The position numbers were made by a program, and so were the translations under genes. Shown here piece after piece: positions 1-61,154 of a stretch of DNA of 64,000 nucleotides. The stretch is from Proteromonas lacertae (Eukaryota): contig NGBS01000901.1 in NCBI GenBank assembly GCA_002245135.1, forward strand, positions 1 through 64,000, read 5' to 3'. Under the pieces are notes generated by a model. It made no database searches. It was not told the DNA's origin and saw only the letters and a program-made list of their open reading frames with translations. Numbering within the stretch: position 1 is the stretch's first letter; every line of letters begins with the position of its first letter.

Positions 1-1287
1 CATTTGTTGGTATTTGAAATTATGAAACTTGATGAAAGTATCTGGAGGTGGAAATTGACGAATGATTCCTTTTTGTAATTGACAATTCTCTTTCTGATGT
101 TGAATTATCATATCAGCTGTTGATAAAGTACAGAAACAATACTGGCATCTGGTATAATAATTATGACACCTTTTACCAGAAGGTGATAGGAAGGCTTCTA
201 ACTTTGTTATTACCATATAATGATCTTTGTATATTAACAGGTTCACATGAGGCCAGTGTTTTCTTTTATCTATGTTGGTAACGTATAAAGGTATTGGTTC
301 ATTCTGGTCTATTGTAAATATATTGATAGTAATATGATTCAGCTGTTCAAACTCGTCAATTCTGTCACTATCATTAATTGCATCTACTGGAAACCTTAAA
401 CTACTTACATCCATTAAGTCTACATACTGTTTATATTTCATTGCTCTGTTACGGTGGTCTTTGAACTCTATATAGTGTAAACCAGCTGCCACGCTAAATA
501 AAAAGCACATATTCTTACATTCTTCACTATATCTTACTAAATTAATAACGCACTTTCTATTGTTGAGGCTTGCTGGTAACTTTATGTTGTCATCTTCTGT
601 AGATGATCCAGCAGCCATTGAACTTTTCATCAGTATCATCTCTACCTTCTTAATATATCTGAACTTTAGTTCAGATCTTTCAGTGTTGAAAATTGAACCT
701 AAATCTCGAATCATGGCATTGTTTAACTTTGAACCAATTGTACCTAACTCTTGAGAAGTTATAATTTCTGGCGCTGTTTCGAATGTTTTGTAACAACTTA
801 CTTGTGCATTGGCTGGTTCATCGGATCCTATATAACCTACTCTGAATCTGAAATACACTTTTATATAAGAAAATTTCTTCTCATTTATGTAGTTACGTAT
901 GGTAACCATAAAATCACTTGATGCATTGCAGATTTGGGTAAACAAATCCTCAGGTTTCTTTCCATCTTCTTCATTTATAATCTTCTCGTAGGTACGTTCG
1001 TAGTCTCTACTGCTTCTCTCTACAAGTTGTAACAAACTTACTCTTTCAGGATGTGACATTGTTTTCAACTGCTCTGGATGATTATCAACAACATCCAGAG
1101 CAATCATTTCTTCCTGTAGCTGCCTTCTTCTTTCAACATCTGTAGTTGATTGAGGATGTATTTCAGGAATTGGTCCATCATTAATTGGTGAAAGTGTTGG
1201 TGGATCTTCAGGAGGAGGTGTATCTGGCAATAAATCATCTGGATTTCTGCTAATCGCTGTATTTTTGGAGGTGGAGGAGGTGGTTGA
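1..1287 (-). CDS. Polinton-type protein-primed DNA polymerase B, N-terminal region (partial; first ATG at 1107)
   Basis: Open frame from 1287 to base 1, hand-translated: GSS..IKLPASLNNRKCVINL..KNMCFLFSVAAGLH..KYKQY..LRFPV..IDEFEQLNHITINIF..HVNLLIYKDHYMVITKL..CQYC..H..C..FIKFHNF. This matches the motif series (LP..L..K..VIN / CF.WS..A.LH / FPV / FE..N.I.INVF / HY..I / zinc finger / KF.N) that precedes the exonuclease domain in Polinton/adintovirus pPolB. Confidence 0.8.
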
Positions 1288-1622
1288 TCAATTACAATTG
1301 AAGATGTTGTTCTTCTTCTTGGTGTTATGAAACTAGTTCCATTAGTACTTCTAGTAGTGTTTGATTGTTGCTGTTGTTGTTGCTGCTGCTGCTGAGGTTG
1401 TTGTGGATGTTGATTTAATGATCCTACATAATATGGTGGAGGATAGTAATAGGATGGTGGTGGTGGGATAGCTGGAGTAAAATAAGGGTTCATCCAGGGA
1501 TTAAAATAACTTTGTGGCAACATTGGAATCTGATTTGCTTGACTATTGCCTTGAATAGGCATAGAAGTACTTGGAGACTGGTAATACCACGGATTAAACC
1601 AAGGAGGATAGCTGGGATACAT
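1104..1622 (-). CDS. Pro/Gln/Tyr-rich ORF upstream of the pPolB frame; possibly its frameshifted N-terminus
   Basis: 172-aa ORF. Overlaps the pPolB frame over 1104-1287, and its TGA overlaps the ATG at 1107 (ATGA). Confidence 0.55.
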   Translation of the reverse strand: MYPSYPPWFNPWYYQSPSTSMPIQGNSQANQIPMLPQSYFNPWMNPYFTPAIPPPPSYYYPPPYYVGSLNQHPQQPQQQQQQQQQQSNTTRSTNGTSFITPRRRTTSSIVIDQPPPPPPKIQRLAEIQMIYCQIHLLLKIHQHFHQLMMDQFLKYILNQLQMLKEEGSYRKK

Positions 1623-1819
1623 TAGAACCTATAAAAACGAGAAAGATATAAATATACCCAATAAAATAACTCCAAATGTATTAATATGATTTGCTAATTG
1701 AAATTCCTTGATAATCAAGGAGTTGTAATAATATAGTTAATTTTTTTTCTTTGATTATCAAAGAAATAATTAACTTTACTTTTAATTGATTGTTTTTTTG
1801 ATTTTTTTACTATATTAAA

Positions 1820-2233
1820 ATGCGTCATTTTGTTTATCAGAGAGATATAACAATGGTTCAAGAAGAAATACCATTTTGGATCAAAGTTTTTAATAGCATT
1901 AGAGAATTAGCATTAAATGGATATACAGAAGTTCATTTCTTATGTTATTTAGAAGAGAGCATAGCTAATCTAGCAAAGTTAAAAGCTATACTAGACAAAG
2001 TTAAGCATTATTATACTAATCAGTATGCAACGAAAAAAAGATTGGAAATTATCACATATTTAGATAATATTAGAAAAGATGGTAATAGATTTAAGAAAGA
2101 ATTAATTGAGAATAATCAATTATTTATTGATAACAAATTAGATTACGCAGTTAATGGATTACTATCTTTATTATGTGATGCTTTAGCAGCTAGAGTGAAA
2201 ATGGATGCAGATATCAAAAAAAGAAGTAAGTAA
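1820..2233 (+). CDS. Hypothetical protein within the Polinton-like element
   Basis: 137-aa intronless ATG ORF with normal composition, divergent from the pPolB locus. Confidence 0.6.
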   Translation: MRHFVYQRDITMVQEEIPFWIKVFNSIRELALNGYTEVHFLCYLEESIANLAKLKAILDKVKHYYTNQYATKKRLEIITYLDNIRKDGNRFKKELIENNQLFIDNKLDYAVNGLLSLLCDALAARVKMDADIKKRSK

Positions 2234-2354
2234 TTATGAATTTATCTAATTATGATTAAATAATTATATATTTTAAATACTAATACAGAGATTAATTAAA
2301 ATAAAAAGAAGACTGTGTGTTTTTAAGGGTTTATTTAAAATAACATAAAAAATC

Positions 2355-2473
2355 CATAACCGATTCTTCTTACCCTTTCTTTTTTTCACTTCCTTACTTA
2401 GGGAAAGTGAAGTCGATCACTTTTCTCTAGGTAAATAAGTGAAAAAAAGAAAGGGAAAGGAAAATCGATTATG
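2355..2473. repeat. Imperfect ~55-bp-stem hairpin in the subterminal region
   Basis: cataaccgattcttcttaccctttctttttttcactt...gaaagtga pairs with tcactttt...aagtgaaaaaaagaaagggaaaggaaaatcgattatg. Confidence 0.8.
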
Positions 2474-2837
2474 AAATCCGCATTTCAAAAACTAAATGAG
2501 TAAAAGAAAAGGGAAAGTGAAAACAAGGGAAAGTGAAAACGAGTCTTAGGTGGTGTATATGGCCTTCCTAAGCTTTATATCAGTCTCTATAACATAATTG
2601 AACAAATGTTTACAACGGACGGCAGTTACACCGTCAGTTACACGTCAGTTATGTAACTGACATGTAACGGATTCATAACGACCGTTAAAACCGTTGTACA
2701 AATGAACGGTTATTGAATAAAATGAAAAATAAGAAAAATGAAACGAATATATGAATTTTAGCCTCGGGTCCAGCGTCAAGCCTCGTGGTCTAGCGTCAAG
2801 CCATTTTGGGTCTGTAGCCCTTAATATATATTATTAT

Positions 2838-5800
2838 GATTGGCATTTGGTTACTGATTAAAGACTAAAGAAAAATGAAAAGATTTTTAAAAATGAAGTG
2901 TTTTTGTAAAGTAATGTGTTTTTCAAGATTGTTTAAGGTTTAAAATGGCATATTTGTAACGATATTTTTTACTTTATAATAATTTAAATATATATTTATG
3001 TTTATATACTTAAAAAAACACAATTAATTAAAAGATTCTAGCATAAATCTATGCCATAATCAATATCTTCTTCACTTTCCTCCATAAGTTTTTTAGCAAA
3101 AATTCCTGGCTTGGGAGCTGGTAATTTCAAATGTTTTACTACACTCAATACCTGTGGTTCTAAATTGTCAAAGCAATTACTCTCTCTCATTTTATTCCAT
3201 CCCTCTTCATCCATTTTTTCAAATATTCTTAACATTGATTTTTCTATTTCAAATTCTTTAGTCTTTAGGTATTCTAAACACTTTGAATGTTCTTCAAAAG
3301 CTGTTACTGCACTGTCAAAATCATTTTCTCCTAAAGTCAATATTATTTCAGTTTCATATAATATCCATCTAATAATATAAATATATATTGTTATACATAT
3401 TATTTGGTTGGTTTAGTTTTGTATAAATATCAATCATATCTTTATTTATTTTTATAGCTTCTGAATATAGTCCTTTCTTTAATTCTAGTGATAATAAGTA
3501 TGAATGAGCATAAATTGAATGAATTTCTATTTCATTCTCATTATACAAACTACAAGCTTCTTTTGCTAACTTTATTGTTTTATCTATATCAAATCTTTCA
3601 TACATTTTAGCTGCTTTTATCAATGCTTTACATGAATCTTCTGGTTTGTTTGCATCTCTATAATAACTTGCAGCTTGTTTATATGCATTTCCTGCATCTA
3701 CACTATCTTGTAGTTCATTTGTTTGGGAAAGTAATAATGCTGCTTTTTGAATTTTTTCTCCTGCAATAAATAAAGCACCACTCTATATTATATTTGTATT
3801 GGTTATATACATACTTTATATTCACAATCAGCTGATAATTTGTAATAAACTATTGCATTTCTATTTTGTCCAATTACTTCATAACACTTTGCTGCTTTCT
3901 CATACAGTTTTGCAGCCTAAAATTAATCTGGTTCTCTTTGTAATTCTTTATATCTGATACTAATAACACATATAATTGAATAATAATACAACTCTTCGGC
4001 TCTTTAGCTTCATGTAATTTCTTAAAAGTAAAATTACTCATTATATAAAGGTTAGATGAATCAAACCTAAAGCTTGATAACAAAAAAATAATGAAAGAAT
4101 ATACTCAAAAATTGATATTAATTGTTATTAATATATAATTAAAAAATCATACTAAACTTTAATCACAGCATAACTATTAATCTATTGATTAACCTGTGTT
4201 ACACTATACTATTACTATAAATAAAGACTTAATTATACATAAATTCGCTTTTTAATTTATTTTGCTGTAGTTATTGTATAATTAATCAGAATTTTAAAAA
4301 ATGAAATGAAAATGTTTGAGAAAGCTTGATATTTCAATTCAAAAATGTGAGTAAATAAGACAATTACATAAAATATTACATTAAAATAATTGAGAGGTTG
4401 TGAATTGTTCAAAAATAGTAATATATGTGTTACATGGAATGATTTGATTAATTTAGAGGATTAGATAGAAATATATCCAATATCTAAGTAATTGTCTATT
4501 TGTTAGTTTAAATGAAGTATTACTTCGCTGTGAGATATATATAAATGTAAAAAACAAACAAAAATATAACTACTAAATAAAATAATATAAAAAGACTTTT
4601 ATGTATGTATATTTTATTACTTTTCTATACACTCAACTGACAAATAACACTCGAACTAATCTGTTTAAATATCCAACTATCACCAACACATTTCTTTAGT
4701 GTTACACAAGTACTACTACTTGAATTCTCTTTCAAATTTACTTCAAATGTAATTCCCATCTTATCACAAATCAATTTATCACTTGTTTCACATTGTAGAT
4801 TTATACTCAACTCTTTTATTATCTTTCTACACATTATACTCACTTCACTCAAAGATTTCTTCACACTTACTGTCATCTCATTCAATTCTACTATTCTTCT
4901 TCCATTTCGAGTTCCAGGTCGACTATTTGATGTTATTGGAGGTTTGGGAGAGCTTGATCTGGGTGAACTACTCAAATTAATTCCATTTACACCAACTGCT
5001 CTTGGACTACTCACTTTCTTATTATTACTACTGCTATTTACATTCATTCTGGCTGATTGAGCATAAGGTGATACATATCTTTCACCATAATTAGGAGTAT
5101 TAATTCGATCTCTTGCAGATATTGCTCCTTCTCGACTATTCATTTGTATTGTTCCTCTTGCTTGGGATTGTGGTTGTTGAGATGATTGTGGAGGTGGCCG
5201 AGGTACTAAAAATGCATTTGTTGGAATTATTGGATTTAATCTTGGACTATATTCCATTGAAGAAACTGGTCTTTGCTTTATTGGGATTGATGGAATTATT
5301 GGTCGATGTGGTTGTATTGGTTGTTTTGATTGTTGTTGTTGTTGTTGTTGTTGTCCTGTTGTTCCTCTTGGAGATGATTGTTTAACTGATGGTAAATCAT
5401 TTTCATTATTAGTAGTTGGAGTATTATCTGTTGTTTTACTTGTTGATATTGATGTGGAAGGTCTTTGTTCATTATTATTATTATCATTAGTTGCATTAAT
5501 TACTATTAAGTTTTCTACTTCATTATTATTACTATTATCTTTGGTATTTGTATTATTATTATTATTTCTATAAAACAGTTTATTATTCTTCAAATCTTGT
5601 ATTTGTAATGGTTCTAAGGTTATTGCTTCATTCGCTTTGTTAGTCTCTGCAATTGTTGTTGTTGTTGTATTATTCTCATTTTCATTCTTTGGCTTTTCTT
5701 TATGAATAACATATGGACTAGATTTAGCTACTCCTAATTGTTTTCGATTAGCTGGAAGTCCTTCACGATGGATTTTCTTCTTTAATAAGTAATAAGTGGC

Positions 5801-5921
5801 TGTATATTCATTATGTAAATTCTTTTCGATTGATTCAATTGCTTTGTTTTTATCTAAGTCTAAATCTACAAGCCAATTTATTATATTTTCATCAATTATT
5901 TCATGATGAATACAATCTTCA
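2838..5921. repeat. Left arm of 3084-bp inverted segmental duplication
   Basis: Reverse complement of 8696-11779 (coordinates sum to 14617). The ORF-track translations are identical in both arms. Confidence 0.95.
3038..4041 (-). CDS. Gamma-SNAP-like (NSF attachment protein) copy 1, intron-containing
   Basis: Mirror image of 10576-11579. Confidence 0.65.
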
Positions 5922-6868
5922 GGATATTGAGGTATATACGACAATACTTGAGTATACCATTTATGTTTACGAATATCATTCATTGTATATCGCTTGTTTG
6001 GATCAGTCTCTAAGATTTTATGTAATAAATCTTTCACTTCATGAGATAAATAATTGGGAGTTTGATATTGCCCACTTAATATCTTTCTATATAAAACTGC
6101 AGTGTTATCATCTTCAAATGGTAAATATCCACAAACCATTGCAAATAATACAACTCCTAAACTCCAAATATCTACACAAGACCCACTATATTTCTTACCA
6201 GCTATCATCTCAGGAGCAGCATAACAAGGTGAACCACAGGCTGTTTTTAACAAAATATCACCTTCATATGTATTACTTAAACCAAAATCGATTAATTTTA
6301 CAGTATAAAAATCTTTATTTCTTTCAAGTAATATGTTTTCTGGTTTTAAATCTCTATGACATACTTTCAGTTTATGAACATAATCTAATGATTCAACGAT
6401 TTGATGGAAGAACCGACAAGCATCTCTCTCATTAATTCTACCATGATTGACTATATAATCAAATAGTTCGCCACTATCAGCATATTCCATAATAAGATAA
6501 ATATGATGAGCTGTATCTATTATTTCGTATAGTTGAGTTACATAGGGATGATAGGTTTTCTTAAAAATCTTTATTTCTCTCCTTACTCTCTCTATATCTG
6601 ATGCATCTACAATTTTACTTTTCTCGAGTATTTTTACTGCAACTTTCTCACCTGTGAGTATATGAGTACCAATCTTAACTTTTCCGAAAGTTCCTTTACC
6701 AATACGCTTACCTAATACATATTTGCCTATTGTTCTATTTCCTTCATTGCTTTCTTGATTCTCAGCTGATGGTGGAACATCTGCAGATTTTATTTCTGAT
6801 TTATTTACATATTGCGTACCACGTCTTGTTGGTCGTGTTCTAGGTTGATAATGAGCTCTAGCTGACAT
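4625..6868 (-). CDS. SNF1/AMPK/MARK-family Ser/Thr kinase with UBA-like and C-terminal KA1-like regions
   Basis: GKGTFGKV, VAVK, HRDLKPEN, DFG, TACGSPCYAAPE; C-terminal FEV...GDSWIFKQI. Confidence 0.92.
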   Translation of the reverse strand: MSARAHYQPRTRPTRRGTQYVNKSEIKSADVPPSAENQESNEGNRTIGKYVLGKRIGKGTFGKVKIGTHILTGEKVAVKILEKSKIVDASDIERVRREIKIFKKTYHPYVTQLYEIIDTAHHIYLIMEYADSGELFDYIVNHGRINERDACRFFHQIVESLDYVHKLKVCHRDLKPENILLERNKDFYTVKLIDFGLSNTYEGDILLKTACGSPCYAAPEMIAGKKYSGSCVDIWSLGVVLFAMVCGYLPFEDDNTAVLYRKILSGQYQTPNYLSHEVKDLLHKILETDPNKRYTMNDIRKHKWYTQVLSYIPQYPEDCIHHEIIDENIINWLVDLDLDKNKAIESIEKNLHNEYTATYYLLKKKIHREGLPANRKQLGVAKSSPYVIHKEKPKNENENNTTTTTIAETNKANEAITLEPLQIQDLKNNKLFYRNNNNNTNTKDNSNNNEVENLIVINATNDNNNNEQRPSTSISTSKTTDNTPTTNNENDLPSVKQSSPRGTTGQQQQQQQQSKQPIQPHRPIIPSIPIKQRPVSSMEYSPRLNPIIPTNAFLVPRPPPQSSQQPQSQARGTIQMNSREGAISARDRINTPNYGERYVSPYAQSARMNVNSSSNNKKVSSPRAVGVNGINLSSSPRSSSPKPPITSNSRPGTRNGRRIVELNEMTVSVKKSLSEVSIMCRKIIKELSINLQCETSDKLICDKMGITFEVNLKENSSSSTCVTLKKCVGDSWIFKQISSSVICQLSV

Positions 6869-7145
6869 ATATTAAAAAATGTAACAGTTATAAAAAATAT
6901 TCAAGCAAAATGCTTGACTGTTATTTTTTTTTGATTATTCTGTCAGTCGTAATAATAAACGAATCAAATATATTAATATCAATAGCAAGACACTTACATC
7001 TTGCGCAGTATGAGTTATGGATTATATTGTCAAATTATTTATATCAGCGTGAATGAAAATATACATGAAATGAATTTATCTATAGTTTATGGTTGAACTA
7101 TTATTCTAAATTATAACATATCGTTATTACTTTTCAGAATTATTA

Positions 7146-7390
7146 ATGAATAACTATTATGCAGAAGCCTTAGATAAAGATGATTTTGCATTTATGCAAA
7201 AAGGATTATTTCTTGCAGATATAAGTTACTTTTCACAATAAATTTAAAAAGATCCTACAAATGGTATTTATTACACTGATAGATGTGCTACATATCTAGC
7301 ACAAGGAGAAATAGATAAAAGAATGAAAGATGGAATAAAAGGAGTTGAATTTTCTGATAATGTAGTTAATATGGATTATTTGATGTACAA
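7146..7390 (+). pseudogene. Degraded TPR-protein fragment
   Basis: DPTNGIYYTDRCATYLAQGEIDKRMKDGIKGVE resembles a TPR repeat; flanking frames are interrupted. Confidence 0.35.
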
Positions 7391-7619
7391 GGTCAAAAAA
7401 AACTCATAAGTATTACATTACAAACAATTCCTCCCAAAATGTATGGATATTATTATAGTAAAGAAGTAATAAATTATTCAATTAACAATGAATATGGTAA
7501 CAATTGGAGAAAAACACATGATGCATATATGATTAGCTAAATGATGTTAATATTTCATCTATTTGAAGATAAAAATGCAATGGAAATATAGTTTAATAAT
7601 TATTAAGAGTTAAAATTTT

Positions 7620-8695
7620 TTAAGTTTCATGGCAAAAGGATAATAATTCTACAGAACTACCACATGCTCCAGCTTGAATACATGGATATAATGGAGAAGG
7701 TAAATCTTTAACAAGTAAAACAGGATCTGAATTATCATGACTAATCCAAAATTCTCTTTTATTCATATCAACAATCACTTCATAAATTGAACCATCTCCA
7801 TGATTATTGAAATTTGGATTATTATTAACAACTGTTCCAATATGACAATCACCTGTAACATCTTGATTTTTACCTTCATATACAAAAGAACAACATGAAC
7901 TATAATAAAAATTATTAATATCACCATTACATATTTTTGTACATAATAATAACGCAATTTCATTATATCTTGATCTGTTTCTGTTGAATTTATATCTAAT
8001 ACTATAAATTCCATATTCCATTTTTATATTTATAAAACAATGATACAAATTACCGCTTGTATTTGTTATTGTTTTACTATCTTTACTAATTGTTATATAG
8101 ATACTTTTATATTCTTCAGAAAATATTACTTCTTCATAATAAATAAAAGATACTCGAAATTCCATAAAGTTTATGATATTTTCACATTTTACTGTATATT
8201 CTATTTTATCTAGTTCATTATTAATAAAGCCTCTAATCTCTCCTGTATATGGATCTATTACAATATCCATTCACCTTTATTGACATAGAGGGGTATGAAA
8301 AATAAGTGATTCTATCAATAAATTCTGAAATAATTCCTTTATTAATTGTTGTATTCATCATAATTTTAATGTCATTCTCTGACATATTTTGGCTTTCAAT
8401 AAAATTAATCACTATTCTTTTAAAATAACTTGGTAGATAATTAATATAATCTAATATATGATATAACATTTCCATCCCACATAAATTGTGTATTCTATAT
8501 ATACAATCATTATCTCTAATTAATAAACAAAAACATTTATAGATTCTTTTTCTTTTATTTAATCTATATTCATTTAATAATAACATTATTATATCAGCTA
8601 TCTCTTCTGTGCTAATTATGTCATTTAATTTTTCTATCATCATTCCACTATCAAAAATTATCATCATCCCAATTTCTTTCATTTTTATATCTTCG
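7620..8695 (-). pseudogene. 5'-truncated member of a BTB/SPRY-like family (C-terminal SPRY-like region)
   Basis: Begins EDIKMKEIG at the duplication junction and is homologous to 17575-17890. Frameshift near 8250. C-terminus DGSIYEVIVDMNKREFWIS..LPSPLYPCI is SPRY-like. Confidence 0.55.
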
Positions 8696-9992
8696 TGAAG
8701 ATTGTATTCATCATGAAATAATTGATGAAAATATAATAAATTGGCTTGTAGATTTAGACTTAGATAAAAACAAAGCAATTGAATCAATCGAAAAGAATTT
8801 ACATAATGAATATACAGCCACTTATTACTTATTAAAGAAGAAAATCCATCGTGAAGGACTTCCAGCTAATCGAAAACAATTAGGAGTAGCTAAATCTAGT
8901 CCATATGTTATTCATAAAGAAAAGCCAAAGAATGAAAATGAGAATAATACAACAACAACAACAATTGCAGAGACTAACAAAGCGAATGAAGCAATAACCT
9001 TAGAACCATTACAAATACAAGATTTGAAGAATAATAAACTGTTTTATAGAAATAATAATAATAATACAAATACCAAAGATAATAGTAATAATAATGAAGT
9101 AGAAAACTTAATAGTAATTAATGCAACTAATGATAATAATAATAATGAACAAAGACCTTCCACATCAATATCAACAAGTAAAACAACAGATAATACTCCA
9201 ACTACTAATAATGAAAATGATTTACCATCAGTTAAACAATCATCTCCAAGAGGAACAACAGGACAACAACAACAACAACAACAACAATCAAAACAACCAA
9301 TACAACCACATCGACCAATAATTCCATCAATCCCAATAAAGCAAAGACCAGTTTCTTCAATGGAATATAGTCCAAGATTAAATCCAATAATTCCAACAAA
9401 TGCATTTTTAGTACCTCGGCCACCTCCACAATCATCTCAACAACCACAATCCCAAGCAAGAGGAACAATACAAATGAATAGTCGAGAAGGAGCAATATCT
9501 GCAAGAGATCGAATTAATACTCCTAATTATGGTGAAAGATATGTATCACCTTATGCTCAATCAGCCAGAATGAATGTAAATAGCAGTAGTAATAATAAGA
9601 AAGTGAGTAGTCCAAGAGCAGTTGGTGTAAATGGAATTAATTTGAGTAGTTCACCCAGATCAAGCTCTCCCAAACCTCCAATAACATCAAATAGTCGACC
9701 TGGAACTCGAAATGGAAGAAGAATAGTAGAATTGAATGAGATGACAGTAAGTGTGAAGAAATCTTTGAGTGAAGTGAGTATAATGTGTAGAAAGATAATA
9801 AAAGAGTTGAGTATAAATCTACAATGTGAAACAAGTGATAAATTGATTTGTGATAAGATGGGAATTACATTTGAAGTAAATTTGAAAGAGAATTCAAGTA
9901 GTAGTACTTGTGTAACACTAAAGAAATGTGTTGGTGATAGTTGGATATTTAAACAGATTAGTTCGAGTGTTATTTGTCAGTTGAGTGTATAG
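8696..9992 (+). pseudogene. 5'-truncated SNF1/AMPK-like copy lacking the kinase domain
   Basis: Matches the 3' half of 4625-6868 and starts after the kinase domain. Confidence 0.85.
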
Positions 9993-10575
9993 AAAAGTAA
10001 TAAAATATACATACATAAAAGTCTTTTTATATTATTTTATTTAGTAGTTATATTTTTGTTTGTTTTTTACATTTATATATATCTCACAGCGAAGTAATAC
10101 TTCATTTAAACTAACAAATAGACAATTACTTAGATATTGGATATATTTCTATCTAATCCTCTAAATTAATCAAATCATTCCATGTAACACATATATTACT
10201 ATTTTTGAACAATTCACAACCTCTCAATTATTTTAATGTAATATTTTATGTAATTGTCTTATTTACTCACATTTTTGAATTGAAATATCAAGCTTTCTCA
10301 AACATTTTCATTTCATTTTTTAAAATTCTGATTAATTATACAATAACTACAGCAAAATAAATTAAAAAGCGAATTTATGTATAATTAAGTCTTTATTTAT
10401 AGTAATAGTATAGTGTAACACAGGTTAATCAATAGATTAATAGTTATGCTGTGATTAAAGTTTAGTATGATTTTTTAATTATATATTAATAACAATTAAT
10501 ATCAATTTTTGAGTATATTCTTTCATTATTTTTTTGTTATCAAGCTTTAGGTTTGATTCATCTAACCTTTATATA

Positions 10576-11579
10576 ATGAGTAATTTTACTTTTAAGAAAT
10601 TACATGAAGCTAAAGAGCCGAAGAGTTGTATTATTATTCAATTATATGTGTTATTAGTATCAGATATAAAGAATTACAAAGAGAACCAGATTAATTTTAG
10701 GCTGCAAAACTGTATGAGAAAGCAGCAAAGTGTTATGAAGTAATTGGACAAAATAGAAATGCAATAGTTTATTACAAATTATCAGCTGATTGTGAATATA
10801 AAGTATGTATATAACCAATACAAATATAATATAGAGTGGTGCTTTATTTATTGCAGGAGAAAAAATTCAAAAAGCAGCATTATTACTTTCCCAAACAAAT
10901 GAACTACAAGATAGTGTAGATGCAGGAAATGCATATAAACAAGCTGCAAGTTATTATAGAGATGCAAACAAACCAGAAGATTCATGTAAAGCATTGATAA
11001 AAGCAGCTAAAATGTATGAAAGATTTGATATAGATAAAACAATAAAGTTAGCAAAAGAAGCTTGTAGTTTGTATAATGAGAATGAAATAGAAATTCATTC
11101 AATTTATGCTCATTCATACTTATTATCACTAGAATTAAAGAAAGGACTATATTCAGAAGCTATAAAAATAAATAAAGATATGATTGATATTTATACAAAA
11201 CTAAACCAACCAAATAATATGTATAACAATATATATTTATATTATTAGATGGATATTATATGAAACTGAAATAATATTGACTTTAGGAGAAAATGATTTT
11301 GACAGTGCAGTAACAGCTTTTGAAGAACATTCAAAGTGTTTAGAATACCTAAAGACTAAAGAATTTGAAATAGAAAAATCAATGTTAAGAATATTTGAAA
11401 AAATGGATGAAGAGGGATGGAATAAAATGAGAGAGAGTAATTGCTTTGACAATTTAGAACCACAGGTATTGAGTGTAGTAAAACATTTGAAATTACCAGC
11501 TCCCAAGCCAGGAATTTTTGCTAAAAAACTTATGGAGGAAAGTGAAGAAGATATTGATTATGGCATAGATTTATGCTAG
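10576..11579 (+). CDS. Gamma-SNAP-like (NSF attachment protein) copy 2, intron-containing
   Basis: Spliced frame AAKLYEKAAKCY..AGEKIQKAA..AYKQAASYYRDANKPEDSCKALIKAAK; acidic C-terminus ending IDLC. Introns ~10803-10834 and 11221-11248; first intron uncertain. Confidence 0.65.
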
Positions 11580-11770
11580 AATCTTTTAATTAATTGTGTT
11601 TTTTTAAGTATATAAACATAAATATATATTTAAATTATTATAAAGTAAAAAATATCGTTACAAATATGCCATTTTAAACCTTAAACAATCTTGAAAAACA
11701 CATTACTTTACAAAAACACTTCATTTTTAAAAATCTTTTCATTTTTCTTTAGTCTTTAATCAGTAACCAA

Positions 11771-12946
11771 ATGCCAATCGGTAACTTCAACTTCCAAAAT
11801 ACAACCAGAATCCTGTTTGGTAAAGACACCATAAAAGAATTACCTCAGTACTTACCAGAAGATAAACATTTTATCTTATGTTATGGTGGAGGTAGTATAA
11901 AAAAATTTGGAACATATGATGCTGTTAAAAAAGCGTTAGGAAAGAGAACAGTCGAAGATTTTGGTGGAATAGAAGCAAATCCAGACTTTGACACTTTAAT
12001 GAAATGTGTAAATAGAGTGAAAGATATCGGCGCTGATAAAGTATTTTTATTAGCTATAGGTGGTGGTTCTGTAGTTGATGGTTGTAAATTTATCGCTGCA
12101 GCTTCTTATTTTGAAGGTGATCCTTGGGAAGATTTATTATTGAAACAAGCTCCAATTAGTAAAGCAGTTCCAATAGCAGTAGTATTGACTTTACCAGCAA
12201 CTGGAAGTGAAAGTGATACATATAGCGTTATTTCAAGAAGAAAACTACATCGAAAAGTATCCCTTCAACACCCTTTATTATACCCAGTAGTGAGTGTTTT
12301 AGATCCTGAATTAACATACACTTTACCTGATAATCAAACAGCAAATGGTGTAGTAGATGCATTTGTTCATGTTTGTGAACAATATGTGACATGGCCATGT
12401 GATGCTGATTGTCAAGATCGATATTGTGAAGGATTAATGAGAACTTTAGTAAAGAATGGAGAGATTATTGTTTCAAATCCAAAAGATTATACAGCTCGTG
12501 CAAATATTATGTGGGCAGCTAATCAAGCGTTATATGGTTTACTAGGCTTAGGTGCCCCATTTGATGGTTCTACTCATATGATTGGTCATGAATTGACAGC
12601 TCAATTAGGATTAGATCATGGTGTAACATTGGCAATTGTTCAACCTCGATTATTTGGATATAAGATCGAACAAAAGAAAGAAAAGTTAGCAATGTTAGGT
12701 GAAGCTGTATTTGGAATAAAGAATAGTGATAAACTATCTGCAGCTAAAGAAACAATCAAAGCAATAGAACATTTCTATCATGATATAATGAAAGTTCCAA
12801 CTCGAATAAGTGAATGTAAATGTAGTCAAGATAAAAGTTGGATAAAAGAAGTTTGTGATCGATTCCGAAAAGAAGGAACGAAATTGGGTGAACATGAAGA
12901 TATTGGTGGTGATGATGCAGAAAAGATTTATAACCAATGTTATTAA
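11771..12946 (+). CDS. Iron-containing alcohol dehydrogenase, YqhD/butanol dehydrogenase-like
   Basis: FNFQNTTRILFG, YGGGSIKK, GGIEANP, GGGSVVDG, TLPATGSE, DAFVH, HMIGHEL...HG. Confidence 0.93.
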   Translation: MPIGNFNFQNTTRILFGKDTIKELPQYLPEDKHFILCYGGGSIKKFGTYDAVKKALGKRTVEDFGGIEANPDFDTLMKCVNRVKDIGADKVFLLAIGGGSVVDGCKFIAAASYFEGDPWEDLLLKQAPISKAVPIAVVLTLPATGSESDTYSVISRRKLHRKVSLQHPLLYPVVSVLDPELTYTLPDNQTANGVVDAFVHVCEQYVTWPCDADCQDRYCEGLMRTLVKNGEIIVSNPKDYTARANIMWAANQALYGLLGLGAPFDGSTHMIGHELTAQLGLDHGVTLAIVQPRLFGYKIEQKKEKLAMLGEAVFGIKNSDKLSAAKETIKAIEHFYHDIMKVPTRISECKCSQDKSWIKEVCDRFRKEGTKLGEHEDIGGDDAEKIYNQCY

Positions 12947-15383: not shown

Positions 15384-15560
15384 TTAATTATAATAAATAT
15401 ATATTAATTAATTTTTATTATTAACTTTTTTAACAAGTAAAATATAAATAGAATCTGGGTGAGCTATTTAAATTAATTCAATTCTACCATGATTTATTGC
15501 GTAATCAAATATGATAAGTTGTATCTTTTATTTGGAATATAATAGTAGAGATAATACATA

Positions 15561-16154
15561 AAGCTCTCCCAAACCTCCAATAACATCAAATAGTCGACCT
15601 GGAACTCGAAATGGAAGAAGAATAGTAGAATTGAATGAGATGACAGTAAGTGTGAAGAAATCTTTGAGTGAAGTGAGTATATAATGTGTAGAAAGATAAT
15701 AAAAGAGTTGAGTATAAATCTACAATGTGAAACAAGTGATAAATTGATTTGTGATAAGATGGGAATTACATTTGAAGTAAATTTGAAAGAGAATTCAAGT
15801 AGTAGTACTTGTGTAACACTAAAGAAATGTGTTGGTGATAGTTGGATATTTAAACAGATTAGTTCGAGTGTTATTTGTCAGTTGAGTGTATAGAAAAGTA
15901 ATAAAATATACATACATAAAAGTCTTTTTATATTATTTTATTTAGTAGTTATATTTTTGTTTGTTTTTTACATTTATATATATCTCACAGCGAAGTAATA
16001 CTTCATTTAAACTAACAAATAGACAATTACTTAGATATTGGATATATTCCTATCTAATCCTCTAAATTAATCAAATCATTCCATGTAACACATGTATTAC
16101 TATTTTTGAACAATTCACAACCTTTCAATTATTTTAATGTAATATTTTATGTAA
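15561..16154 (+). pseudogene. Third partial copy of the SNF1-like 3' end and downstream DNA
   Basis: Matches 9662-10253 with a 2-nt insertion near 15680 and a few substitutions. Confidence 0.9.
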
Positions 16155-19640: not shown

Positions 19641-20331
19641 TTTATTGTTTTGAGCATATATCTACATAAATTGGTATTTACACACATATTCACTTTTCTA
19701 ATCACATCAAATACAACATATTTCATTAACAACTGAGAGATTTCACAAAATTCAAAGTTCTACATCACCTTCTAAAATCTATTATGAAATGAATCATCTA
19801 TACATAGATATTCTTATATATTAATTATATTCTATATGTCATTCATATAATAATGAATAATAAAGGGAAATAGCACAGTGTGCCATTTCCCTATATGTGT
19901 TTTTGATTCAAAAAAATAGCCGTTTCAATGTGTGCTATTTCCCTATATTGTTTTTTCATCATTAGAAACGTTTTTAATGCATAATAAATATATCAATCGA
20001 TTTCTCTATTTATGCTGGGCTCATATATGCCCTTAGTTTGACTTTCTGATCATAATCGAAATTTAATTTTCTTAAAAAAATTCAAAAAACAATGATAGAT
20101 AGGATGGCCACCATACTGTGTGATATGACAACATATAGTGACCATCCTATATCAAATAAAACAAAAAAAAAATGAAGTTCAAGTCAAATCTTGAAACGAA
20201 TGCTTTTTTCAAAAATAGCTTAATTTCTTTTATAATTATTTTAAGGTGTTAATTAGCACACCATATAATTTATAAGTTATAATACTAACCCAAACAAAAC
20301 AAAACAAAACCAATTCAAGATTCATTATGAT

Positions 20332-21133: not shown

Positions 21134-21873
21134 TCTCTGGTCCTAATTGATTCAAATGATATATTGTGTTTGTGTGGGAGTGTTGTTTTCATAATTTACA
21201 TAATTAATTAGCATTATAACAAGTCTTATAAGAAATATCAATAATAGAAAAATAGATGCGTTTCAAAAGTGATTTGGCTTGAACTCTATATTTTGTTTTA
21301 TTTGATATAGGATGGTCACTATATGTTGTCATATCACACAGTATGGTGGCCATCCTATCTATCATTGTTTTTTGAATTTTTTTAAGAAAATTAAATTTCG
21401 ATTATGATCAGAAAGTCAAACTAAGGGCATATATGAGCCCAGCATAAATAGAGAAATCGATTGATATATTTATTATGCATTAAAAACGTTTCTAATGATG
21501 AAAATACACTATAGGGAAATAGCACACATTGAAACGGCTATTTTTTTGAATCAAAAACACATATAGGGAAATGGCACACTGTGCTATTTCCCTTTATTAT
21601 TCATTATTATATTCATTATTCAAAATTTAAATGAAATGGCTTGATTGAATCAAACTAATGTCGTTTCATTTCTTTTATCATTTTCATTGCATAGAAATAT
21701 AATAACAGTATTTTATTAGTTAATATAATAAGTGTATACAACACATAACCATAATCAAGAATAAATAAATCAATAATGTCATTTTCTCCTATTCTTTAAT
21801 AAAGAAAATAAAATCAATAGAATGAGGAATATCAACAACAAATAAACAATTATACATAATTATCATATATAAA

Positions 21874-24800
21874 TTAATAATAATCAGAATCATATTTACT
21901 TTCTAAACTCTCTTTCTTCTTTTGACTTATATATAATTTATGAATTTCTTCACCTTCTTCACCTAAAAAGTCTAAATAGTTTTCATCTTCATCACTACTT
22001 AAATTATCACCATATAACTTCTTATCTTCAATTATCATCTCTAATCTTCTCTCTTTTTCATCTTTTTCATTTTCTTTTAAACTGAAAGAACATAAACTCA
22101 CTTTTCGATGCGGTTTTACATTATTCGTATAATCGATTAAACTTCGAATATTTGGAACACAACCTTTCAATTCTTTGATTTCTCGTTTCATTGGAGGTAG
22201 TTTTATATCATATTCTTCTAAGATATCTCTATTATCATTACAATATTTCATATTCATTTCCATTCGATCATTCACATTTTCACCATTTATTCCACCACAT
22301 ATTATCATTTCACGATCTTTACTATTTATATCATTTTTATTTAATCCAATTGATAATAATCCATTTTCATTTACTATTTTGTTATTTTTATAATCAAATA
22401 ATTCATTCTTCATTCGATCATTTAACATCTTTTCTTCTTCATCATCTTCATCTTTTGTTATATTCTCTTTCTTAAATATTAATTTATTACATTCACTTTC
22501 ACTCGAAGATAAATCAGATTTATGAATTAATTCTAATTCTCTTACTTTTATTATATTATTATTATTATTTCTCTTCATATTATTTATTTCTTTCTTACAA
22601 TATATAAAATGTTCTAATATGTAATCTACATCATATTTTATATCGAAATCTTCATCAATCTTATTTATAATAACCTCTTTATTTTCATTCTTTTCTTCTT
22701 CACTCATATCATTATCACCATTATATTTCACATTTTCTTTCTTTTTATCATTTTCTTCTTCTATTTCTTCTTCTCGATTAGATATTGGAGATATTATTTC
22801 TTCTTTATTCACATCAGTATTATCTATTACTATCTCATTTAATAATGGATAGTAATTTATTCTTTTACTCTTCTCCATATAATCAGTTGTTGGAGGTCTT
22901 TCGGATTTTACTCTCATTTCTATTATTCCTTTCTTCTTCTCTTTCATTTCTAATGGTTTAAAACTATCATCTACATATTTTATCACACTTTCTACATCAC
23001 GATTGGCTGGAATTATTCTACTTTTATTCTTAAATTCATTACTTCGATAGTTTGTTCCATTCTCTAATTTATCTTCAATCATTATTTCCATCATCTTTTC
23101 TAATTGTTTCTTTTTATTGATTTTTGGAACTTTTTTCACTTTTCTTTCTTCTGCTACTTCTTCTTCTTTTTCTTCATAATAACTATAATAACTTTCACTA
23201 CTAAACGTTGAATCACTCTTTATATGAGGTAATCGATGAACTAATGTGTTTGATTTTGGTCTTACTGTATGATATGGAGTAGCTGTTAATCTTCGATCAT
23301 ACTGAACTGAACTACCTAATTCAATCAATATTTCATCATCGATTTTATTATTCATTTTTTTACTCTTTCTACTCGCAGTTTTAATATATTCATTATTATT
23401 ATCAAAAGTATCAGTTAAATCTGTAATAAATGTGTTTGAATTGTATTTTTTAGATTTTATTTCTTCCATTTCTTTATCATATGCTAAATCAGCGACAGAT
23501 TTATTCATTAGTATTGGATGTTTACCAGCTTCTAATAATTCTTTATTTCTTTGAACTTTTTCTCTCAATTCCTTCAATGGATCATACTTTTCTTCTTTTA
23601 TTATTTTCTTTTCTTCTTTTTTCTCATATTTTATTGTATTTGTTACTTCTAAATCCTTTAATTTCTCATTTTGTACATTTATTGCTACTTGACTTAATAC
23701 AGTTGGAACTGATTGACTTTTAGGTAAATATTTTTGATATTTTTTAATTGAATTTTCACATCTTAAAGTTATACTTTCTAATGGATATTCGAAACTTCCA
23801 TTTTTCTTTTTATGTATATCAGGTAAAGTAGATTTACATTTTCTCATTGTATTAGCTGTATTAGCTGTATTAGGAGTAGTTGTTCTTGTTACTGTTGTTG
23901 ATGACAATGGAGATACAGATACAGCATCTGTATTTGTATTTGTATTTGTATTAATTGTATTAATAGTTTCAAAATGTGTATCATCTTGTCTATTCAATGA
24001 TAATGGAGTTGTTGGTGGAGATATTGAAACTCGTCGAATATTTGTACAAATTGATATTCCCTTATTATCTTCACTCATTTTACTATTTTCTTCACTCACT
24101 TTTCCACTACAAACACTATTATTTGCAGTGGATAAAACAGTTGTATTTTCATCCACTGGATAAAAGGTAGAATCTTCTAGAAATCCTTGTTTTGCTACTA
24201 CTTGTGAATATACAAATTTCTTTCTATGTTTCTTAGGGAATGGAGCCCAAATAATTTCATGATTATCTAAATAATGTAATGGTTTCAACGTATTCATTTG
24301 CTTATTTCTCATTCTCATCATTTTATTCAATTTGATTTGTTTTCGACTTTTTAGTTTGTTCTTACCAACAGTCTGTTCTTCTTCATCTTTACATTTTATT
24401 ATGTTATTTCCATTAATTTCTAATTCCTGTAATTCATGGTTAATACTTGGAGATGGATTTGTTGATAAGATTTCAGATTCAATTTCTTTCGTTATATCTG
24501 CTGAATTTATAGATCTTAAACTATCACTAAATTCATTCTTTTGTTTTTGTTTAAACTGTTTTAGTGTCATTTCATAATCATGGATTTGTTTTTCTAAGTT
24601 TATATCATATTCATTCTTCAAATTTTCATTTCTAAAATTCTCAAAGTCATCTTCTTCTAATTTTGGTTTATAACTATCAGTTATTGCACTCCACATGTGT
24701 AAACCATTTTCAACTGAATATTTAACTTCATATAAATTACTAAATGTTTCATAACTTGCAAATTTCTCACCATCTGGACGTAATACTTTCTTTGAATCTT

Positions 24801-27800
24801 CTAATCGATCTTTATATTTTAATCGATTCATTAATACGACGAATATATTATTATTTCGCTGTAAACTATCCATTGATTTTACTAATTTTTGACTTTTCAT
24901 TAATCGTATTTCTTCCTCAGATGGACCATTATCTACTACTTTACGGTTTCTACGTAATTTACTTAAAGGATTGTCAAAATAATCCCTTTTCTCTCTTTTA
25001 CTATTCTCATCATTATTTTCTTCTATTGTCACTATGGGAGGACTATTTGGTCTCGAGTTTAGCTTGGATTTTCTTCTTTCTTCACCCATCATACTCATCC
25101 TTCTAACACCCATCAACTTCTTTGTTCCAGCTTTCAATTTATTCTTTCCACTTTCTAATTTATCATTCTTTCTTCTCGCTTCTAAGATTCTTAAAGCACT
25201 ATGTTGTGGATTCTTCATATCTTCTTGTCTTATATCACTTATTGGTACAACGTAATTCTTTTTCTCTTCACATTTCCATTCTACTAAGTTTGGATCATGT
25301 ACTGGACTTTCTCTAATATAATCATCATTGTAATTACTACTACTATTATCATTTTCATCAAAATTGAAATTACTTTCACTTTTCTTAGTGGGCGATGGTG
25401 TATGTTTACGATTAGCAGCTGCTGTTGCTTGTATTAATCGACTTTTCCTTCTATCAGGACTTCTACCAGCACTACTTCCAGGTCTACTCCTTCCAGTCAA
25501 AGCTTCTTCTGCTTTCTCTTCTTCTAACTCTTTCTCTAACACTGGGGATGGCGGAATATATACTTTTAATTCTTTTTGTGTTTCTTTTGTCCATAAAACA
25601 CGATCATTTCCAATGGATGGGATTTCATTAGGATTCATATTCTTTCCAATATTTCCAAACTCAATTACTGGATCTTTAGAAGTATCATGAATTTCACTGA
25701 TATATAATTTCTTATCAAAATCAATCACTTTTTCTTCACTCAATTCTTTTTCTATTTTTTTCATATCTCCTTCGCCTTTGATTGGTTTTACTTCCACATC
25801 AATATCAATATCACCAATTCGATCTTTTCTTTCATTTATAAATATTTCATTCAAAGATTCTTCATATAATGCTTTTAATTCAGCTTCTCTTTCATCAGCA
25901 CTAACAAATCGATAAGTATCAACTAAATTAATATTTTCAGCTTTATCTTTATCATCTAATTTCAATGTTCCATCCTTATTATAAATGTTAGTGTTATCTA
26001 GTTGAAACATTATTTGACTATCATTATTTAATGATGATAAATTACCACCACCACCTGCATTATTCTGATTGAAATTCTTACTATCATTCGATACAATAGA
26101 ATCATTTGATAAATCATTATTCACAGTAGAAGTTGATGAAAATATACTACTCCTTGTACCAACACCATCTAATCTACCACCAATCATACTTTCTTTACGT
26201 TTATTATTATTATTATTATCAGGTAGAATAGAAGCACCAATTAAACTACTTTTTCTCTTATTTCCACCACCACTACCACCACTAGTAGTGTCTACTGTCA
26301 TTTCACTTCCATTACTTACCATTGATGAAGTTCTTAACGACTCTTTTAATCTTTTACTCAACTCTTTTGTTTTTTGATAATGTGCTAATAAGATTTTCAT
26401 TTGTTTGATTTCTACGATTATAGTTGATTTTACTTCAATCATTGAATGCATTTCATCTATATCTTTATCTAAATTCATCTTTCTACCATCAATCTCATAA
26501 TGTTCATTGTCATTCTCTTCATTTTTCTCCATTAATTCGATTTTTTCATTTTTTATATTTTCTAACTCTATTAACAAATCACCAGCATTGTCTTTCAAAT
26601 CGATTGGAATTTGATTTAAGATTTTCTGTTGTGCATTTATTTCTAATGTCAAGCTGGCTTGTTGTATCTCATAATTTCGAATATTCTCTTTCATTTTACT
26701 AATCATTAATTCCGCTTTATTTTGAACTATCTTCAAACCTTTAGCTCTTTCGCTGTTCTTACCATTTTCTTCAACTTCTTTATCATACAATTCAATTGAT
26801 CTTGCCAATCTTTCTTTATATTCTTTTAAATTAACTTCACATTTTTCTAACTCTTCATCAATTTTCTTCTTCTCATTCACTTTCTCTTTAATTATTTTTC
26901 TAACAGATGTCTTTTGAATTGTAAATTTATTATGAATAGTTTGTAATTCAATTGCAATCTTATTCCCTCTAGAATCTAATTCATATATTCTCTTCTCTAT
27001 ATCATTGATTTTATTGGTTATATCCAATAATCTCTTATCGCATTCTACTACATTTGTTTCTGTATCTTTAATTCCTTGTTTTAATTGTTTTATATCTTCA
27101 TCATATTGGTCTATTATCTTCTCACAATCATCAACAGTTTCAGTTTTTAATTTCTTTATTTCTTCTAAGAAAGAAACTTTATTCTTTTCAGTTAAATTAC
27201 TACTGTTAATTATCCCTTCATAATTAGGTTTATACATTATTGGTTCATTTACTTTAGCTCCTAATTGATTGGATATTTTCATCATTGATTTCCTTATATT
27301 TGCAGGTGTATTTGCTGCTTCATTTAAAGCTTCCATACTTTTCTTAAATATTTCACTATTTCTCCTTAAAAATTCATAATTATTATATTCAGTTATAATT
27401 TCTATATCTCTCTTCATCATATTAGAAATAATATGCCTTCGACCATCAATTATTTTATTATTTGTAACGATCAAATTTTTTAAACCATGAGCATCCAATG
27501 ATTTTAATTCTTTTAATTCTTCCTTTGCTTTGACATATTGATCCAACCACCAATGTATCTCACTATTATCATATGGATACTGTATTTCTGTAATCTCAAA
27601 ATGATTCTTCTCCTGTTCTTCCTGTTCTTTTCGTCTATATAAAAACTCTAATGATGCTGTTCTCCATAAATATCGATAACTAAAATCTTTTCCTATTCTT
27701 TCAATATATTCATGATATTTATTAACTTCATAATCTGTAAATTCAAAGGCATTTATTCGTTTTAAATGTTCAAAAAATACTTCGTTTATTTCTTTAGAGT

Positions 27801-29793
27801 TTGGATTTGTATTTCCACCACATAATTCAAGTGGAGTTTTTCCATTAATATCTTTCAAATTAATCAAACTTCCACATTCTAATAAATATCTAATTATTGG
27901 AATATAATCAATAGAAATTGAAGAATTGTAACAAGCCACATGCAATGGAGTTTGACGGTTTATATTTATACAATTCACTATATGACCCATCTCTTCAATC
28001 AAGCTTTTAACTCGAAGCAAATCACAGGTTTGAACAGCGATATGTAAACTGGTATTGTGATTCTTATCAATCCATAAATGTGGGTTACTCACATCTTCTT
28101 TATCATTTTGTAATTTCCAATTTAATAATATCAAATCCATTCGATTCTCTAATCTAAATGAATTTGTTCTTTTCATTTCATAGCAGTTCCTTTTCGCCTC
28201 TTTAAACATTTCTTTACCATTCAAATGAAACAACAATCTTGGTAATTCACCACCATTTTTACTGTATATTCTATTCTTTTTTTTACATACTAATTCATGC
28301 CAATTATAAAAGATAGTTTTAGTATGTTCAAAGCAAACTTGTCTTATATATAAATACCTCAACATTCTCCACTGATTTCTGTATTTATAATAATCTAACC
28401 ATCTTCTAAAACAATAAATTAAACGAAAATGATCACTATCATCTTTCCACCCAAATTGAGAAAGTAATGCTAAACTGATATTGTTTGATAATAATATATG
28501 ATATATTCCAACCGTTCTAATCATTTTTTGAGCTTTTAATCTTTTTCTCCATGTAAATAAACTGCTTTTCTTGTTTAATACATTACTTTTTAATTCTAAA
28601 TAATTCTTATTCTCTCTCAATATATGACTTTTAGTTGAATAGTTCTTCCAACCACTAAAACATTTACTTAATCGTCGAATTCTATTTCCTCTTCCTCGAC
28701 TTCTTTCTTTCCATTTTTCAAATACTTTTAACATTAATTTCATTGTGTAATGTTTTGTACTTTGACTGAATTGTTCTCTCATCACTTTGAGGATATGAAC
28801 GAAACTTTTCCAACTTTTGAAATATCGACGAATATGTGCTTTTTGAGCTAAATCACTTAGTGAAAATTCACGAAGTTTACGACTCTATTAATAATAAAGA
28901 AATAGTATGGAAAATAAAAGGAATAGAAGTGTATTAAAAAAGAATGAGTGTAAATAATCATTGATATATACTTGATATCTATTAATAAATCTTTCCCATT
29001 CACTTAATGGCTCTAAAAACACTGGTAAAGGTAATTCATTCTTCTTACAAATATGAAATACTGTCCATCTGTACCATATTTTAAATGATAATTTTTGTTT
29101 TTCTTTCAAATATACTAATTTCTTATGTTCTTTTATTATCTTTTCTCTTGTTGAATGTAACATCGCAATTGCTTTTAATCGATTGTTATATATCATTTTT
29201 ACGAATTTCTTCCAATTATCGAAGTAATCACGAATATCAATTTCATTTGGTTTTAATTGTTTCTTTTCTAATTCTTTCTTTTTCTTCTCTTCTTCATCTT
29301 CTTCATCACTATCATTGTTATTTATTACGATGTTCTTTATTCTGGATTTTCTTTCTATTTCTCTTAATTCTCGTTCTTGTGTTAATAAACTAAGTTCATG
29401 CTTTCGTTTCTCACGAATATATACGTTGTAACTCCACCAACTACGAATCACATGGTCACACAGCTTTCGATTAAAGTGCTTCACAGATAACACGTAATTT
29501 CGCCAATCAATAAATATTAATATACAATTGTGGTGTTTTCGATTTATGTATCTCATAAATTTACGACGGGGGATTATCATTCTCCACCACGTTTGAATAA
29601 ACACTATACTTTGACTACGACGTCTCTATTATTATATACTAATCATGCAAATTTATACTTCCAATTTGTAATGTTCTAAAAATATTCTGGTCTCTTCATC
29701 TTCTTTACTTGTGTCTTGATGGAATGGAGCAAATATTTTGGGTTGCTTCATCATCATTTTTCTTTTATTCTTTATTTCTGCATCAGATAACAT
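21874..29793 (-). CDS. Giant IQ/Sfi1-like, ankyrin-repeat, coiled-coil protein
   Basis: IQTWWR (IQ-like), repeated F..WK motifs, NTSLHIAV/QTPLHVAC/GKTPL ankyrins, long coiled coil. Introns ~29626-29658 and ~28885-28971 join the ORFs. Confidence 0.75.
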
Positions 29794-52045: not shown

Positions 52046-52906
52046 TTATTTATGTAATTTATTAATCACCATCTCAGCTTCTCTTTCTTTCTTTTTTAAA
52101 TATATAATTGGTTGTTCTAAAATTTCATTCTTTCTTAGTTCTGAAAGTATTGATTTTAATTTTATTTCTCCATCATTTATTTTGCCTTGACAAGATGATC
52201 TATTTGATAATATATATAACCAATAATCAATAATAATACATCGCATTTTTAGCTTTTTCCTTTATATTATCTATAATTCTTACTTTTCTATTTCTTTCAA
52301 TTATTTTACTCTCTTTTTTAAATAAGTCATTAAAAAATTTTACCACTCTATCATTCTGCAAATCTTCTTGTGAATAATATCTAACATGATTAACAATAGT
52401 TGTTATAATATCAACACAATCATTGATTATTATTTCATCATCTTCATTACATAAGTCACAAAGTAAGGAATATACTATTGTAAAAGAATTAAACGGCAAT
52501 AAACTTAAATCTTTATATTTTTTATCTAACTGATTGTGCTTGTAGTATTTGATCTTATTTTTCATATCACCATTATTTCTATTACTCACTATATAAAAAA
52601 GATTCCTCACAATTTTATTTGATAATATATTTCCTTGAGATATTAGATCACTGCATTTCCTATCATAACTTTTACTCTATTTTATATTATTATAACATAA
52701 TTACATACCATCACTTCTACAACTGATTTGTATGAAAAATCAATAATTGATGATTCATCTGATTCTTTTTCCTTTTTAATTTCTTCTAGTATAAATGAAA
52801 ATGCAGATTGATAGAGTGAAGAAGATGGAATTTCGAAATTTTCATCCATCACATATTCCATTGATTCATCAACATAACTCTATTATCATTACAATAACAT
52901 TAATAT

Positions 52907-52940
<34 letters not shown>

Positions 52941-61120: not shown

Positions 61121-61154
<34 letters not shown>

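Follow-up and report, generated by a model that had tools for sequence, protein, structure and literature searches.

The closest described systems to the locus presented here are the Polintons/Mavericks and the adintoviruses that carry a Beta (group 1-like) protein-primed PolB (pPolB), as set out in PMC8502044 and PMC8097293. In the polinton pPolB layout published by Krupovic et al., a terminal-protein (TP) domain is followed, in that order, by a vOTU cysteine protease, according to the text of 10.1101/2024.03.18.585575, and an association of pPolBs with DDE/rve integrases is reported in 10.64898/2026.10.13.758929. Starrett et al. 2021 described Blastocystis MELD viruses with an Alpha-like PolB and an integrase and defined the divergent Beta class; the available text of that report describes no host junction for the Blastocystis MELD virus (PMC8502044). 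Bellas et al. 2023 reported integrated protist elements of 15-30 kb, often with a pPolB, TIRs and a different GC content. For Proteromonas lacertae, which belongs to the same order as Blastocystis (Opalinata), 285 capsid genes are listed and ten Blastocystis assemblies are left blank, the capsid column being taken here as the count from Table S4 of that source (PMC10120064).

Since protists commonly carry Polinton-like elements, the class of element is itself no surprise. What was known already is a Blastocystis MELD virus with another PolB class (PMC8502044); the literature searched gave no description of an integrated element with the present polymerase class in a Blastocystis-type chromosome, and the main text of a long-read Blastocystis genome paper contains neither 'Maverick' nor 'endogen', its supplements being a place where such repeats may be listed (PMC12129017).

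We consider it probable that positions 1-2837 of the window, the whole stretch of 64,000 nucleotides analysed here, are non-host DNA carrying the front of a Polinton-type pPolB, joined to the host after codon 3 of a copied alcohol dehydrogenase (ADH) gene, and that they likely represent one end of a recently integrated Polinton-like virus, the host probably being a Blastocystis-like protist. The open frame, with its pPolB homology and its intact Cys and His, is directly observed, as are the exact junction and the inverted duplication of 3,084 bp starting there. The features concerned are the following.

1 to 1287, minus strand: pPolB N-terminal frame, 429 codons, open through the window edge, first Met at 1105-1107
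82 to 147, minus strand: C-x2-C...H...C zinc-finger-like motif, ahead of the exonuclease domain
193 to 597, minus strand: predicted vOTU cysteine protease, Cys 505-507 and His 220-222 intact
616 to 1002, minus strand: predicted TP domain with a little-finger/PAD fold, predicted linking Ser 673-675
1104 to 1622, minus strand: upstream frame from ATG 1622 with a Y/P/Q-rich leader, overlapping the 1287 frame, its TGA overlapping ATG 1107 (ATGA)
1705 to 1721 and 1748 to 1764, no strand: two 17-nt palindromes between the divergent starts
1820 to 2233, plus strand: divergent 137-aa ORF, four helices predicted at low confidence
2355 to 2473, no strand: hairpin with 52-nt arms, 85% complementary, and a 15-nt loop
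2400 to 2542, plus strand: purine repeat of AGGGAAAG type, four copies (repeat family D1)
2600 to 2837, no strand: CpG-rich terminal segment, candidate TIR, with a 16-nt direct repeat at 2767-2802
2820 to 2837, minus strand: terminus, non-host DNA from 2837 with (ATA)2, alternative 5'-AG at 2821
2838 to 5921, minus strand: inverted host copy, 3,084 bp, 100% identical to 8696-11779
8696 to 11779, plus strand: other arm of the inverted duplication, its edge 11779/11780 being the empty site
11771 to 12946, plus strand: iron-containing alcohol dehydrogenase (Fe-ADH), intact, the target gene (PF00465, E 3.7e-33)

The earlier note had described a minus-strand frame running from 1287 to 1 without a stop, and this is borne out: 429 stop-free codons have a chance of about 2e-15 at the local composition. 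The motif series that it had listed is present in full and in order, as LPASLNNRKCVIN, CFLFSVAAGLH, FPV, FEQLNHITINIF, NLLIYKDHY, CQYC..H..C and KFHNF. Its statement that introns are not evident agrees both with the alignment of the frame to the relative P0002 (40% identity over 399 columns, with small gaps only) and with the count of host-type tiny-intron patterns, which is 0 in 1-2837 against 74 in 5922-64000; a 29-nt borderline candidate at 1657-1629 falls just below the AT cut of the pattern. The claim of relatively GC-richer DNA stands for 1-1622, where GC is 35.4% against 25.5% across 2838-64000, but not for 1623-2350, which has just 22%, and host genes reach up to 31-34%. A better sign of foreign origin is GC3, which is 27% in the pPolB frame against 8-17% in 9/9 host ORFs (p=4e-10 against four pooled host ORFs).

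An AlphaFold model of the residues encoded by window 1155-1 (pLDDT 76.5, 12 sequences) contains two domains. Specifically, residues 52-180 of the model match the little finger of the Y-family polymerase Pol eta (Z 9.1, rmsd 2.7, 107 aligned), and residues ~187-321 match OTUD1 (Z 7.2, rmsd 3.8, 111 aligned) as well as many other OTUs, Z-scores of 7-9 being modest and near the range that the tool calls common. The candidate linking Ser at 673-675 lies in the modelled loop between helix 134-157 and strand 163-178, the loop in which 10.1101/2024.03.18.585575 places the TP linking residue, and 36/43 of the rows reaching this column carry Ser. The vOTU Cys is conserved in 143/146 aligned rows and the His in 149/150, and the positions of the zinc-finger-like motif are conserved in 138/139, 133/140, 112/130 and 105/120, respectively; this motif presumably binds zinc. 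Given the TP and vOTU fold assignment and the near-invariant residues, the motif series corresponds to the vOTU and the zinc-finger-like motif. The top matches among viral structures were an adintovirus protein (E 1.8e-15) and a MELD-virus PolB (E 4e-9); the available text of PMC8363768 gives no Alpha/Beta label for the top fold match. A Pfam scan of the window frame itself returned no match. All together, the frame is predicted to encode a TP domain and an OTU protease, a pair that matches the Krupovic layout in its order, and homology and both predicted folds support the earlier assignment to the N-terminal region of a Polinton/adintovirus pPolB. The front end is that by which the Polinton family is defined, a protein-primed PolB with an N-terminal TP and an active vOTU, the domains being predicted and the residues seen in the sequence.

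A phmmer search with window 1-720 as query, against 1.84 billion representative sequences, identified 1,097 relatives at E≤0.001, of which 150 matches were listed. Forty-one of these 150, namely the two best and a set of long ones, were scanned for domains: DNA_pol_B_2 was present in 11/41, Endonuclease_7 in 22/41, either of them in 27/41, and 14/41 had neither. In the long proteins retrieved (n=46), DTDS was found in 42/46 and the Exo II motif in 39/46. P0151, a cluster mate of the best match and, among the relatives with more sequence, the closest one, shares 56% identity with the window frame over 137 aa; further along it has exonuclease, endonuclease-VII-like and Pol A motifs, with DNA_pol_B_2 at E 1.9e-8. 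Exonuclease and polymerase motifs are found in the relative P0124 as well as in P0151; the window frame ends ahead of the exonuclease, and it is these relatives that suggest the polymerase part of the window gene, for which some 900 further codons would be expected, P0124 having 908. As a separate observation, P0151 differs from the other aligned pPolBs in that Exo II is followed, at residues ~325-530, by an acidic insert of low complexity, ~190 aa long.

A quick tree search on 42 rows (the window, P0001, P0002, P0011 and 38 long matches, with no named Alpha/Beta reference) grouped the window with P0001 and P0002 in one clade with an SH-aLRT of 100, and this clade joins P0011 and the full-length P0124 at a support of 98. 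Outside P0001 and P0002, the window frame is ~25-35% identical to the remaining matches listed. A word-index search for longer proteins found none among 274 candidates, the profile A1 had no match among PDB sequences, and scans of viral contigs (with the window frame, P0151, P0124 and P0002) and of metagenome contigs (with alignment A2) gave no confirmed related locus.

By comparing these data with the described systems, it appears that the locus resembles the Polintons/Mavericks and adintoviruses with a Beta pPolB (PMC8502044; PMC8097293) in its TP-vOTU-pPolB fusion, in its intact Cys and His and in being intron-free, as Polinton genes are, for the part inside the window. The relatives of the window measure 1,100-1,300 aa, score weakly or not at all against PF03175 (34-90 bits against the archetype, or nothing) and contain an endonuclease-VII insert, which would fit Beta pPolBs, nuclease inserts in pPolBs being already known. 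For the window pPolB, the Beta (group 1-like) label is a putative one. Unlike the Beta-pPolB Polintons and adintoviruses, the locus has a protist host, a clade of its own with P0001 and P0002, an (ATA)2 end in place of (AG)3 or (AGT)2, and a gene with a Y/P/Q-rich leader. With the Blastocystis MELD virus it shares the general type, a Polinton-like PolB element, and the presumed host lineage, whereas the PolB of that virus is Alpha-like and that of the window looks divergent, the two being set apart by description (PMC8502044). The elements of Bellas et al. were found via capsid genes, and no capsid gene is visible in the element part of the window (PMC10120064).

TP- and/or vOTU-like domains, as seen here, are also described for adenovirids, bidnavirids, the mavirus virophage and Tlr1-like helicases (10.1101/2024.03.18.585575). 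According to that source, the vOTUs of adenovirids and bidnavirids are inactive and the adenovirid TP is separate, whereas in the window the dyad is intact and the TP is fused; the window frame therefore shows neither the replaced vOTU residues of these two groups nor the separate TP of the former. In addition, the mavirus and Tlr1 types lack a full exonuclease, and the Tlr1-like/transpoviron helicase-polymerases are defined there by an SF1 helicase and no exonuclease domain, whereas the closest relative of the window has an exonuclease; to judge from that relative, its Exo motifs would argue against a Tlr1-like/transpoviron type.

The frame 1287-1 has no Met before residue 61 (1107). The upstream frame, whose first 120 residues have a high content of Pro, Gln and Tyr, probably supplies the real 5' part of the pPolB gene, with the start at ATG 1622; P0002, alone (1 of 150) among the matches listed, has a similar leader in the same frame as its TP-vOTU. 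BLASTP with composition adjustment detected no similarity between the upstream frame and P0002, and the leader gave without this adjustment a weak match, equalled by 44/1,000 block shuffles. In the simplest reading, both frames belong to a single gene that is broken by one base where they overlap, through mutation or read error. An intron joining both frames was rejected: the five GT-AG options of 77-110 nt have poor donors, lie far above the 26-34-nt host pattern and would also delete a TPxRR motif found in P0002 too. No canonical -1 slippery heptamer was found, and the ATGA stop-start overlap may be due to chance, as 6/40 off-frame stops arise likewise. The frame break may mean that this copy of the element is dead. 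Translation from Met 1107, however, would still give all the conserved domains, and since the vOTU Cys of this product lies at residue 201, inside the range of 112-299 in 29 full-length relatives, the copy is not necessarily dead. Just upstream of the gene, the 29-nt GT..AG stretch at 1657-1629 (minus strand), 6 nt from ATG 1622, resembles a host-type tiny intron in the 5' UTR of the element.

The inverted host copy 2838-5921 holds the first three Fe-ADH codons, a SNAP gene and the 3' half of a kinase gene. Self-comparison of the window places the outer breakpoint exactly at 2837/2838, after Fe-ADH codon 3, with no shared bases beyond. Because the intact ADH copy runs on at 11780, the window holds both the occupied and the empty version of the site, and the empty version fixes the host boundary, with non-host DNA from 2837. 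The end at 2837 is thus confirmed independently, at the very base where the earlier note had put it, and with a base-exact boundary the terminus, TSD and integration mode become readable from one adjacent window. The inner breakpoint, at 8695/8696, leaves the right kinase copy truncated and seems to interrupt a further host ORF; at this junction (8686-8701) two GAAGAT sites lie head to head, as a 6-bp repeat within a 14-nt near-palindrome. The target gene at 11771-12946 is intron-free, a possible case of lateral transfer, and we take it to resemble bacterial YqhD/butanol dehydrogenases; an exact sequence look-up of the host ADH gave no match.

Short tandem ends serve slide-back priming, and (ATA)2 fits this role. 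The proposed atypical (ATA)n terminus stands insofar as 2837 starts (ATA)2, but it is one of two readings, because a canonical ...CT-3' lies 16 AT-only bases inside. In this second reading the end would be the 5'-AG at 2821, which has no tandem repeat, and the 16 bases may be repair filler. The (ATA)2 at 2837 does not fit the vertebrate end motifs (AG)3, (AGT)2 or (AC)3A given in PMC8097293.

The structured end of about 500 bp that had been described was recovered in part: 2340-2837 folds with z=-7.5 (0/100 shuffles equally good), but this is mostly the one hairpin at 2355-2473, the last 248 nt reaching z=-2.55. Rfam gave 11 matches, all of them generic hairpins below gathering scores. The CpG o/e of the terminal segment is 1.65 versus 0.43 in the host; no inverted partner of this segment is present within the 64-kb window, and its 21-nt terminal pattern had 0 matches in metagenome contigs. 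The pattern of the 16-nt repeat occurs in 38 viral loci with a single match each, and these were taken as chance since none has a match longer than 20 nt or any protein match. The divergent small ORF is present as had been noted, with a host-like GC3 of 15%; no homologue was found among 8 candidates (Atlas best 0.79), and its model has a pLDDT of 57. The two palindromes are candidate sites for a dimeric DNA-binding protein; their pattern, which was drawn from them, has just these 2 matches in 64 kb, and 6/100 shuffles give 2.

The surrounding host DNA uses the standard code, with candidate introns of 28-32 nt. TGTTTGTT occurs 16 times (14 without duplicated copies) against a mean of 4.9 over 30 simulations, none of which gave more than 8, and at one mismatch it lies within 120 nt of 7/11 stops tested, that of the small ORF included, the background being 13%. 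This motif is the Blastocystis poly(A) signal as given in PMC4159000. Its enrichment indirectly supports the Blastocystis-like host proposed in the earlier note, and judging by sequence a Blastocystis-like stramenopile is likely.

By analogy with the family, once the element is excised the TP serine of the polymerase would serve as its primer at the linear end, with slide-back on the (ATA)2 repeat; the vOTU would release the TP by cleavage, and new copies would be inserted by an rve-type integrase encoded further left. At this locus, insertion and duplication would share one breakpoint. An aberrant integration at two sites, inverting 5922-8695 together with its neighbour and duplicating the arm, is a substantial possibility, short of a probable one; retroviral integrases cause comparable aberrant two-site events. 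The element could also have integrated normally, into one arm of a recent and longer duplication, which is a fair contender, if a somewhat doubtful one. It is rather unlikely that the assembly joined two alleles, one occupied and one empty, two 100% identical arms being expected also from a chimeric read or a collapsed assembly. The intact ADH copy remains under each of the three routes, for which the expected far flanks differ. A duplication with its start at the end of the element would be a case of host rearrangement brought about by a Polinton-type element.

A more ambitious version, which we put forward tentatively and regard as unlikely in full, is that of an active, gut-protist-specific clade of Polinton-like elements with a low-complexity polymerase leader and adenovirus-like (ATA)n ends, whose integration at two sites left three host genes inverted and duplicated, the essential-looking ADH surviving as a result. 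If true, this would make the locus an intact DNA virus integrated in the Blastocystis lineage, its empty site known to the base, and an active element could offer integration tools for a gut protist that is hard to engineer.

It is improbable, in our judgement, that the locus is a capsid-less pPolB element or a truncated relic, that is, a transpoviron- or linear-plasmid-like replicon with no more than a polymerase and perhaps an integrase, or a deleted, non-autonomous and helper-dependent copy. The element part of the window does show just the pPolB and one orphan ORF, there is a frame break in the gene, pPolB+DDE modules without a capsid are known from 10.64898/2026.10.13.758929, and ten Blastocystis assemblies appear without a capsid count in Table S1 of Bellas et al. 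(PMC10120064). However, the proteins of Tlr1/transpoviron type are presented as lacking an exonuclease (10.1101/2024.03.18.585575), whereas the closest relative has Exo motifs; any decay is slight, given the intact TP Ser, the intact dyad of the vOTU and 384 codons without a break; and capsid-encoding elements are reported in Blastocystis datasets (PMC8502044) and in Proteromonas (PMC10120064). Least of all do we expect a junction artefact, in which free linear viral DNA or DNA of another locus was joined, in amplification or assembly, to a host fold-back chimera and is not integrated at the ADH: the arms are indeed 100% identical over 3,084 bp where the other duplications in the window reach 92-99%, the inner junction carries the 6-bp head-to-head repeat, and the frame break lies near short A-runs, as is typical of read errors, but two independent chimeric joins would be needed, one of them at a structured CpG-rich end, no break interrupts the host ORFs of 2,336 and 748 codons, which speaks for an accurate assembly, and older duplications, among them a third copy, 597 bp long, of part of that segment, indicate that the region really does duplicate.

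The presence of this third copy at 15558-16154 (99%, 597 bp), which repeats the kinase 3' end at 9659-10253, means that the kinase-end segment was duplicated more than once. Elsewhere in the window, 19845-20255 and 21205-21612 form an inverted duplication of ~410 bp at 92%, while a direct duplication at 92.6% (52766-54731 and 60978-62974) contains two ORFs that by eye are Hsp70-like. The 2,336-codon host ORF, located at 21874-28884 on the minus strand, shows by eye ankyrin-like and coiled-coil stretches.
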